A stretch of DNA of 64,000 nucleotides from Escherichia coli. GTDB lineage: Bacteria > Pseudomonadota > Gammaproteobacteria > Enterobacterales > Enterobacteriaceae. The stretch lies in NCBI RefSeq assembly GCF_001677475.2, contig NZ_CP015229.1; one strand, 5' to 3'. The notes beneath the pieces were generated by a model. That model was given only the letters and a program-made list of their open reading frames with translations. It ran no database searches and was not told the origin of the DNA. The position numbers and the translations under genes are program-made. Within the stretch, counting starts at the first letter, position 1. Each line of letters opens with the position of its first letter. This document shows positions 22,813 to 23,314 of this stretch, piece by piece.

Positions 22813-22842
22813 GGCCTGGTATTTTCCAGGCCATTTTTTTTT
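22813..22842. terminator. Bidirectional rho-independent terminator
   Basis: GGCCTGG-TATTTT-CCAGGCC followed by T9 on plus strand; sits between convergent genes. Confidence 0.65.
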
Positions 22843-23314
22843 AGAAGTCGATCTCTGTATCGCGATTAAATTCATCGCTAAGGTAAAGTGCTTCGCTTGG
22901 GCATTTTCCGTTTTCCAGTAATGTTTCCCAGAAATCTTTATCGAAACACCCCTCAAGATACAGATAGCGGCAGATGTGAAGTAAATCACTTCGTGTCCAT
23001 CCGTGCATGCTGCTACTTGTTACACCATATTCACTTTCTAGTTTATAGAATGTGAGCGCCTCCCGGTCGTGCCAGGCTTTGCACAGACGATCGTATATCT
23101 TTTTAGCTTTGTTTTTAGATGTGCCGAAAAACTCTTCGTAAATTTCATGTGGGCGAGTAGGAATACTTCCGTCGCCATCCTGCAAGAAAGGATAAACATC
23201 TGCCTCCCAGGCATACACGTAAGAATCGCTGAACTCATCATAGTGTTTACCAAGGTGGAGAATCTGCAATCGTTGCTGAATGAACATTGCTTTTTTCAGT
23301 TCATTTTCTGACAT
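22841..23314 (-). CDS. Hypothetical protein, island accessory gene (opposite strand, AT-rich)
   Basis: 157 aa; only substantial minus-strand gene in the island besides the small regulator; own terminator; no recognisable motif. Confidence 0.45.
   Translation of the reverse strand: MSENELKKAMFIQQRLQILHLGKHYDEFSDSYVYAWEADVYPFLQDGDGSIPTRPHEIYEEFFGTSKNKAKKIYDRLCKAWHDREALTFYKLESEYGVTSSSMHGWTRSDLLHICRYLYLEGCFDKDFWETLLENGKCPSEALYLSDEFNRDTEIDF

Follow-up and report, generated by a model that had tools for sequence, protein, structure and literature searches.

A gene for a 157-aa protein on the minus strand of an E. coli contig (NZ_CP015229.1) is, in all likelihood, dispensable cargo of a slot between the early genes and the capsid gene of a capsid-forming PICI (cf-PICI). 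The gene is genuine and under purifying selection, and we conclude with high confidence that it is an exchangeable accessory gene of a conserved cf-PICI slot, which would be transcribed on its own. The combined proposal, in which this slot cargo is expressed in the dormant satellite and has a role in conflict through protein binding, is given a chance only just short of even. As it stands, the finding is a good experimental candidate and not a demonstrated novelty. The whole stretch of DNA analysed, 64,000 nucleotides long, is referred to as the window; the coordinates of the features in it are listed in Table 1.

Table 1. Features of the cargo gene, its slot and the surrounding cf-PICI in the window
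Feature	Coordinates	Strand	Basis
Integrase	14822..16111	+	family search
Excisionase/regulator phrog_2790 (AlpA-like)	16077..16652	+	family search
Helicase-primase	19927..21336	+	family search
SSB	21787..22212	+	family search
PerC-like activator	22216..22509	+	family search
Left flank: phrog_1957 'hyp', last gene of early/replication operon	22516..22803	+	family search, RefSeq annotation
Cassette relative to empty slot, approximately 562 bp	approximately 22804..23365		comparison with empty-slot locus L002
Shared terminator: stem AATGGCCTGG-tattttc-CCAGGCCATT (22810..22835) and T run to 22842	22810..22842		folding, conservation
Cargo CDS, 157 aa, ATG to TAA	22841..23314	-	ORF call, homologues, dN/dS, model
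Shine-Dalgarno AGGAGG, 8 nt 5' of the cargo-gene ATG	23323..23328	-	read from sequence
Candidate -10 hexamer TAAGCT, 17 nt downstream of the -35, within cassette-specific DNA	23356..23361	-	inference
Conserved motif AACAAATAACTTACAAA, containing -35-like CTTACA (23379..23384)	23377..23393	-	motif scan, alignment
Right flank: HK97-type major capsid gene, first of head/packaging operon	23609..24754	+	family search

The island and its resident prophage

The region from approximately 14.8 to 30.1 kb is, judged by its gene content, a cf-PICI, a class defined in PMC10085698. Its left part holds the integrase, the AlpA-type regulator and the primase-helicase module, and it has its own HK97 head and packaging genes; the capsid gene is followed by genes for a protease, portal, head-tail adaptor, HNH, TerS and TerL. 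Further genes of the island are an anti-repressor-like gene and Icd-like ORFs with a C4 antisense RNA, and all of these genes are on the plus strand. No match to tail or holin/lysis genes was found among the island ORFs scanned. The RefSeq annotation of islands at other chromosomal sites, 97-98% identical around the cargo gene, agrees with this picture. The cargo gene is located between the replication and head modules, as the earlier note had it, with the genes for the helicase-primase, SSB, PerC-like activator and 'hyp' protein on its left and the capsid gene on its right. It and the capsid gene are divergent, and their start codons are 294 bp apart.

The satellite framing of the earlier note can be extended: a resident prophage has its terL gene split by the island. 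The two flanking parts of terL, N-terminal (13689..14882) and C-terminal (30130..30855), join at profile positions 448/449. Helper-embedded PICIs (HE-PICI, PMC10111431) insert in late genes, the terminase site included, and have integrases of one clade. The island shares with them the interruption of a late gene of a prophage, a likeness which is that of the island and not of the cargo gene. This state matters because a cargo product made in the dormant state would be made in a cell which already carries the probable helper.

The cargo gene

The reading frame runs from ATG to TAA at exactly the position claimed for it. Close homologues (n = 19) in other Enterobacterales encode proteins of 156-158 aa with 52-63% identity. 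Between close orthologues dN/dS is 0.04-0.09, and dozens of homologues, spanning large distances, showed no frameshift. An exhaustive HMMER search placed 256 clusters (at 50% identity) in the family at E<=1e-3 and 123 at E<=1e-10. With at least 256 such clusters across Proteobacteria the protein is not an orphan, as it had been labelled.

The lower GC content reported for the gene is real: it is 42.4% for the ORF and 41.5% for the cassette, against 49.6% for the island and 51.4% for the window. Low GC is not unique to this gene, since similar values were obtained elsewhere in the island for the integrase (42.4%) and the neighbouring small upstream 'hyp' gene (44.8%). The cargo gene is also the sole sizeable antisense gene, again in agreement with the earlier note. 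All recognisable genes of the island are on the plus strand, and the other minus-strand ORFs tested were without any family match and each overlapped plus-strand genes.

A conserved slot with alternative states

Near-identical E. coli cf-PICIs without the cargo gene were found. In a comparison with an empty-slot locus (L002), the backbones cease to be homologous just past the upstream gene's stop codon and are homologous again from the T run before 'caggttttgtaa' onwards, which delimits the cassette as given in Table 1. Of 5426 complete E. coli genomes, only 8-9 have the 562-bp cassette.

The state of the slot was compared among approximately 50 cf-PICIs with a related capsid gene from IMG/VR. 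It was empty in approximately 28, contained a member of the 157-aa family in 4, an unrelated gene for 166-170 aa in 8 and a gene for 252-258 aa in 3. All slot cargo in these cf-PICIs is antisense, and the same slot states recur among the E. coli genomes. The 168-aa occupant was tried as a relative of the 157-aa family and rejected (hhalign probability 0.3%); neither it nor the 258-aa occupant was identified by PADLOC or Pfam.

In at least 27 of 35 IMG/VR loci the cargo gene occupies the same slot, 275-295 nt from and divergent to the capsid gene, and the same slot was also found in cf-PICIs of Salmonella, Serratia and Edwardsiella. Identity in the IMG/VR slot loci is 49-100% for the cargo protein, mostly 66-77% (range 47-100%) for the capsid protein and 73-100% for the portal protein. 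The cargo gene is therefore regarded as having long been in the slot without being indispensable there. Its divergence approximately tracks that of the backbone (53-61% identity versus 66-69% for the capsid protein). This tracking fits a long residence and possibly a satellite-specific role, and in that respect counts against the combined proposal.

The suggestion in the earlier note that the gene is accessory cargo of the satellite is borne out by these comparisons: most related E. coli cf-PICIs have nothing in the slot, and in others it is taken by unrelated genes, also antisense. The slot content varies at a fixed site, both by presence or absence and by replacement, and a deviant composition and own transcription signals were found as well, as is usual for moron or hotspot cargo. 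In PICIs, the mid-island accessory region adjoining pri is known to carry immune genes (PMC11364771).

Probable transcription signals belonging to the slot

The hairpin at the 3' side of the cargo gene (22810..22835) has a 10-bp stem with 6 G-C pairs, and a T run follows it on the plus strand. It would terminate the rightward early operon, of which the last stop codon is at 22801..22803. The cargo gene, which runs leftward, has its stop codon (22841..22843) 5 nt before the hairpin, and the plus-strand T run overlaps this codon. Its folding energy is -19.3 kcal/mol on the plus strand and -17.8 kcal/mol on the minus strand (z = -5.6 and -5.0, respectively, versus shuffled sequences). A scan for generic terminator-like sites in the region found 4 versus 4.0 expected, which is no excess over chance, and the case for a terminator is therefore made by the energy and the conservation of the stem. 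The stem GGCCTGG..CCAGGCC, but not its loop, is the same behind homologues from Serratia, Salmonella and Raoultella. It is present with other loops behind the unrelated 168-aa cargo as well, and the empty slot of L002 has a different hairpin at the equivalent position.

A strong bidirectional terminator at 22813..22842 had been proposed as belonging to the gene. The strong hairpin and its position (within 3 nt) were confirmed. However, only the plus-strand U tract is clear, the tail on the minus strand (AUUAUUAUUCUAC) being a poor U-tract. The hairpin would thus be the stronger terminator for the plus strand, and bidirectional action is plausible. It cannot be called the gene's own, as the same stem also flanks the 168-aa cargo.

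At the 5' side of the gene, the motif AACAAATAACTTACAAA has one match in the window versus 0.03 expected. It is conserved 5' of cargo homologues in 7 loci, and also in empty slots and before the 168-aa cargo; in its general form, AACAAATAAYTTACAAA, it holds a -35-like TTTACA or CTTACA. Nearly all of the approximately 50 cf-PICIs have it at a fixed distance of approximately 232 nt from the capsid start, whatever the state of the slot. A -10-like hexamer was found 17 nt from TTTACA in four further loci, L008 (TATTGT), L023 (TATTAT), L003 (TATGTT) and L005 (TATGGT). It appears that each cargo brings its own -10-like hexamer, while the -35 would come from the backbone. A consensus promoter scan of the region did not call the candidate promoter of the window (-35 CTTACA, -10 TAAGCT).

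Since the -35 motif is present in all slot states and the terminator stem in both types of cargo, the flanks belong to the slot and not to the gene. These shared flanks probably serve as homology anchors for the exchange of cargo. The same flanks were seen beside a homologue in a Raoultella satellite of a different type.

The protein family

The AlphaFold2 model of the protein, made from the alignment of 19 sequences, is all-helical (pLDDT 90, pTM 0.86). The protein is acidic, with a pI of 4.9 and a net charge of -11, and so is the core of the family (median pI 5.0, net charge -7; 91% of members below pI 6). E93, R108, R116, Y117 and E141 are nearly invariant and H56 is mostly conserved; the conserved polar residues persist in members only 26-50% identical to the protein in the window. 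Such invariant polar residues could mark an active or ligand site, which would speak against a pure stoichiometric binder. A HEPN motif (R108-x4-H113) was considered and rejected because H113 is not conserved across the family.

That the protein has no recognisable motif holds for every library searched: Pfam, PADLOC, NCBIfam, PHROGs and the PDB sequences gave nothing significant for the 157-aa protein, and none of the 5027 models of PADLOC-DB v2 matched at E<=1. A PDB match of the 92-member profile to a mosquito D7 protein (E 0.016) was discarded as a chance match. Foldseek against AFDB50 returned 32 matches, all of them members of the family, and structural matches outside it were at noise level. 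Going by the model, this is a fold without an annotated relative, in a family that is undescribed. No annotation beyond 'hypothetical protein' was found, a profile search of a 5.8-billion-protein set added only entries of that kind, and a literature search with the protein's accessions found nothing.

Approximately 25 of the best 150 cluster representatives (about one in six) have an N-terminal extension of 45-110 aa. Among 92 members, such extensions were found to hold Pfam domains of the types Phd/YefM (3), RHH (2-7), MazE/AbrB (1-2), HTH_43 (1) and Aca2 (1). The AFDB names among the relatives include CopG, SpoVT-AbrB and WYL, and one is named 'SocA-like Panacea domain-containing'. The 157-aa protein in the window lacks the DNA-binding N-terminal domain. 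The architecture of a DNA-binding head with a second domain is typical of type II antitoxins and one-component regulators. Fusions to Phd/YefM, RHH, MazE/AbrB and HTH domains are a hallmark of antitoxins and regulators and not of known single-gene defences, which speaks against defence. By themselves the fusions point equally to an antitoxin-like or a regulatory module.

Distribution and gene neighbours

By tblastn, no match to the family was found in 50,697 phage genomes, and there were 4 matches in 72,556 plasmids. Several homologues have defence genes as neighbours. In a P4-like or PICI-like satellite of Raoultella the homologue adjoins the candidate defence gene PDC-S31, in Citrobacter it is convergent with a short pAgo and Aga-REase system, and a Phd-fused member is divergent from a type II CBASS operon. 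Other homologues are located in a CP4-57-like island (Enterobacter), near an Ssp4 T6SS effector (Phytobacter and Kosakonia), between serine recombinases (Aeromonas) or, in an alphaproteobacterium, in housekeeping surroundings. Defence genes are neighbours in approximately 3 of 10 independent non-satellite contexts, and the association of the family with them is suggestive and not a statistic.

An all-against-all BLAST of the neighbours at 14 loci yielded no conserved partner gene outside the cf-PICI backbone. Homologues are usually alone on their strand, and the fused forms examined are also monocistronic. No adjacent toxin-like partner was present in any context examined, those of the fused forms included.

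Comparison with known systems

The closest parallel in organisation is Tai (tail assembly inhibition), a single-gene immunity in the PICI accessory region adjoining pri, which in phi80 is antisense in the late operon and is expressed in the dormant state (PMC11364771). Like Tai, the cargo described here is one small gene in which no domain is recognised and which escapes PADLOC and DefenseFinder; it is placed mid-island between replication and packaging genes, antisense to the surrounding operon. However, Tai homologues are mostly found in phages (PMC11364771), whereas the 157-aa family was found in 0 of 50,697 phage genomes, and there is no counter-defence gene adjacent to the 157-aa gene. 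Homology was rejected as well: hhalign gave a probability of 0.18% against the 204-aa gp52 of phi80, which is presumed to be TaiEcA by size and orientation only. phi80 was among the phages searched by tblastn and had no match. Moreover, blocking tails would harm a cf-PICI because it depends on the tails of its helper.

The Panacea domain (DUF4065, PF13274) of PanA/SocA resembles the 157-aa protein in being helical, approximately 155 aa in size, encoded on mobile elements and in some cases provided with a DNA-binding N-terminus; PanA of phi52237 is even of the same length, 157 aa. Identity with Panacea was nevertheless rejected. PF13274 gave no Pfam match even at E<=10 and was found in 0 of 92 relatives, and a PanA alignment that started from the validated gp9 of phi52237 scored a probability of 0.09% in hhalign. 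Nor is there a bicistron with a cognate toxin of the Panacea type: the 562-bp cassette holds one gene, and elsewhere no neighbour is conserved.

As in hotspots (PMC9122126) and in the 5' and 3' immune regions of PICIs, unrelated small cargo genes are swapped, or are absent, at a fixed locus flanked by conserved backbone genes; in hotspots, too, the cargo often has a lower GC content and its own transcription signals (PMC9122126). The slot described here differs from those hotspots (PMC9122126) in that it is a feature of cf-PICIs, lies immediately before the capsid gene and holds a single antisense gene. It also differs in having one -35 motif across the slot states and one terminator stem across two types of cargo, and in that no slot occupant seen is a known defence system.

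Proposed role of the cargo

We propose that the 562 bp are accessory cargo of the moron type, inserted in a conserved slot which cf-PICIs have between their last early gene and the capsid gene. The -35 motif, at its fixed distance from the capsid gene, would come from the backbone, and occupied slots would share the GGCCTGG..CCAGGCC terminator. Antisense cargo genes would be exchanged between these signals, probably by recombination in the shared flanks. We infer that the cargo is read constitutively from its own sigma-70-type promoter, independent of the induced operons, and since it would not depend on induction its product would be expected in the dormant satellite. The role that we favour for the 157-aa protein there is one in conflicts between mobile elements: as a sensor or inhibitor it would form a stoichiometric complex with a protein of a phage or the host, and thereby shield the cell that harbours the satellite against other phages or interfere with these. 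Catalysis is considered less likely.

Several features of the context make a conflict function plausible: the family is missing from the phage genomes, the gene resides in satellite and island hotspots, some homologues have defence neighbours, and the protein is acidic and does not look like an enzyme. The search of phage genomes (0 of 50,697), together with the few plasmid matches (4 of 72,556), suggests a phage-hostile rather than a phage-friendly function. The acidic core and the lack of a recognised catalytic family suggest a binder of protein rather than of nucleic acid. That the role of the gene is phage-hostile defence or interference is put forward tentatively, as somewhat less likely than not.

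A bolder version, in which the 157-aa protein is a one-gene anti-phage or anti-helper system of a new fold, a solitary modular domain, and the slot an 'expression socket', is doubtful. The swapped conflict genes would then include two families sharing a RHIM-like QVQ[IL]G module, which is as doubtful. If this version were true, the protein would stand for a new family of modular domains which, like Panacea, can be joined to RHH, Phd, AbrB or HTH heads, yet need no partner gene next to them. The slot, not described before, would offer a fixed -35 element of the backbone and a terminator stem common to the cargo cassettes.

The exchangeable cassette is a compact and testable candidate, with one gene on 562 bp and a delimited candidate promoter and terminator; as natural controls there are the empty slot and the two alternative cargos. 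cf-PICIs are abundant in Enterobacteriaceae and cross between species, and products of the dormant state would therefore spread widely. The slot may be an entry point to single-gene immunity or counter-immunity functions which are absent from current defence catalogues. The recurrent fusion to antitoxin-type DNA-binding heads without a partner toxin is an unexplained architecture. Even without a conflict phenotype, the slot documents cargo exchange in satellites at conserved transcription signals.

Alternative explanations

One alternative is that the protein is an orphan neutraliser of the antitoxin type, serving in counter-defence or against addiction, whose acidic helical domain blocks a toxin or abortive-infection effector encoded elsewhere, be it by the host, a competitor or the helper prophage. 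In this way the satellite, with HK97 capsids of its own, would be shielded from toxin-based immunity, and relatives with a DNA-binding N-terminus would repress their own promoter, as type II antitoxins do. The antitoxin-type extensions in approximately 25 of the best 150 representatives and the agreeing AFDB names are consistent with this, as are the acidic core, usual for antitoxins, and expression that appears to be constitutive. However, the contexts examined contain no adjacent toxin-like partner and the family is not related to Panacea. The family also has no match in the 50,697 phage genomes, phages being the usual home of counter-defence genes and phage antitoxins, and its conserved polar residues suggest a single common target instead of many toxins. 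We consider the neutraliser unlikely, although the antitoxin-type fusions keep this reading, and a regulatory one, in play.

It is quite unlikely that the gene regulates the life cycle of the satellite, with the protein or the antisense transcription tuning the switch to expression of the capsid and packaging genes. This could be brought about by binding of the PerC-like activator or RNA polymerase, by transcriptional interference, or by insulation of the late operon from early read-through. Against all of these stands the dispensability of the gene: most related E. coli cf-PICIs are empty or have an unrelated gene, and the empty slot keeps a terminator. The family is also found outside satellites, on plasmids, in integrative islands and in housekeeping neighbourhoods. 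Finally, the 157-aa form is acidic and has no DNA-binding domain, and its structural matches are at noise level.

The protein could also have a new fold with an enzymatic or small-molecule-binding function. It might, for instance, sense or sequester a signalling nucleotide or modify a conserved host target, and the DNA-binding fusions would then act as ligand-responsive regulators. The near-invariant E93, R108, R116, Y117 and E141, the mostly conserved H56 and the confident globular model would suit such a function. In addition, the fused architectures resemble one-component sensors, and one fused member lies beside CBASS. However, neither sequence nor fold is similar to any enzyme or ligand-binding family, and the R-x4-H spacing of the 157-aa protein (R108..H113), which is not conserved in the family, is no HEPN motif. 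This explanation is improbable.

A spurious ORF or a decaying remnant of cargo, to which the bare annotation as 'hypothetical protein' and the rarity in E. coli might point, is next to impossible and effectively refuted by selection and conservation: dN/dS is low (0.04-0.09), length and frame are conserved in dozens of homologues, and the gene has a strong Shine-Dalgarno sequence, a conserved promoter motif and terminator, and a confident model.

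Insertion of the cf-PICI in the prophage terminase gene

The large terminase gene (terL) of the resident prophage is split by the capsid-forming PICI (cf-PICI), which occupies approximately 14.75-30.1 kb of the window. An imperfect direct repeat, GTGTATTGC[A/G]CTGTGTATTGC, has copies at 14847..14867 and 30023..30043. The same configuration has been described for helper-embedded satellites (PMC10111431), and the island in the window is a helper-embedded satellite configuration in this sense. The coordinates of the split terminase gene, its neighbours and the other features are listed in the table.

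Features of the window and of the comparison loci (L-numbers)
Feature	Location	Strand	Remarks
Prophage TerS	13207..13689		before split terminase gene
Prophage terL, N-terminal part	13689..14882		phrog_9 positions 169-448
Prophage terL, C-terminal part	30130..30855		phrog_9 positions 449-673
Prophage portal	31049..32290		after split terminase gene
C4 antisense RNA	18652..18739	+	Rfam, 72.3 bits, E 1e-12
Inverted repeat GTGGCACTCAGACGTGAGCCGCCAC	23465..23489		~120 nt upstream of capsid start
166-170-aa slot occupant	L024 623..1129	-	also L025, L026, L077, L104 and others
252-258-aa slot occupant	L106 2477..3253	-	also L090

The cargo slot and its occupants

The junction between backbone and cargo in the slot upstream of the capsid gene lies inside the putative promoter (23356..23393 in the window, compared with ~4080..4125 in L002, where the slot is empty, and ~1150..1200 in L024, which carries an unrelated cargo). 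The -35 motif is backbone DNA, common to occupied and empty slots; unlike this motif, the -10 is supplied by each cargo.

Alternative cargo in the same slot is an antisense protein of 166-170 aa (WP_001053661.1, WP_024226529.1). This protein and the 252-258-aa occupant have unlike N-termini and a C-terminal module in common, 'N[IT]FNI..x..QVQ[IL]G', after which comes a helical stretch; the shorter one ends in a hydrophobic tail, SIVGAGASALIGLL. PADLOC and Pfam gave no identity for either occupant; the Pfam RHIM model matched the QVQ[IL]G module weakly (i-E 0.052). The two could be amyloid-signalling or membrane effectors.

Homologues of the 157-aa cargo protein were also found beside defence systems. 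In L011, a Phd/YefM-fused homologue (5001..5618) is divergent from a CBASS operon (patatin, CD-NTase, E1/E2 and JAB) within a Tn7-like element. A stand-alone homologue in Citrobacter youngae (L014, 8001..8477) is convergent with a short pAgo and Aga-REase pair, and the cf-PICI promoter motif is still present upstream of it.

Regulatory elements and repeats

The C4 RNA adjoins two ORFs (17533..18504 and 18497..18964) whose C-termini are Icd-like, and together they make up a c4-icd immunity cassette of the P1/P7 type in the regulatory region of the satellite. The inverted repeat upstream of the capsid gene has hardly changed between the cf-PICIs of E. coli, Salmonella, Serratia, Edwardsiella and Lelliottia, in contrast to the divergent intergenic DNA around it. 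Candidate roles for the repeat are an operator bound by the PerC-like activator or a 5'-leader structure of the late operon.

Direct repeats, GT[TG]TTTGCGGGTTATTT, are located 3' of the island TerL (29678..29716) with a third copy, 'cttgcgggttac', close by, and inverted copies, 'ataacccgc taacccgc ataacccgc', follow ~100 nt further (~29810..29840). This layout is iteron-like, and the repeats could represent an origin, a packaging site or integrase arm sites.
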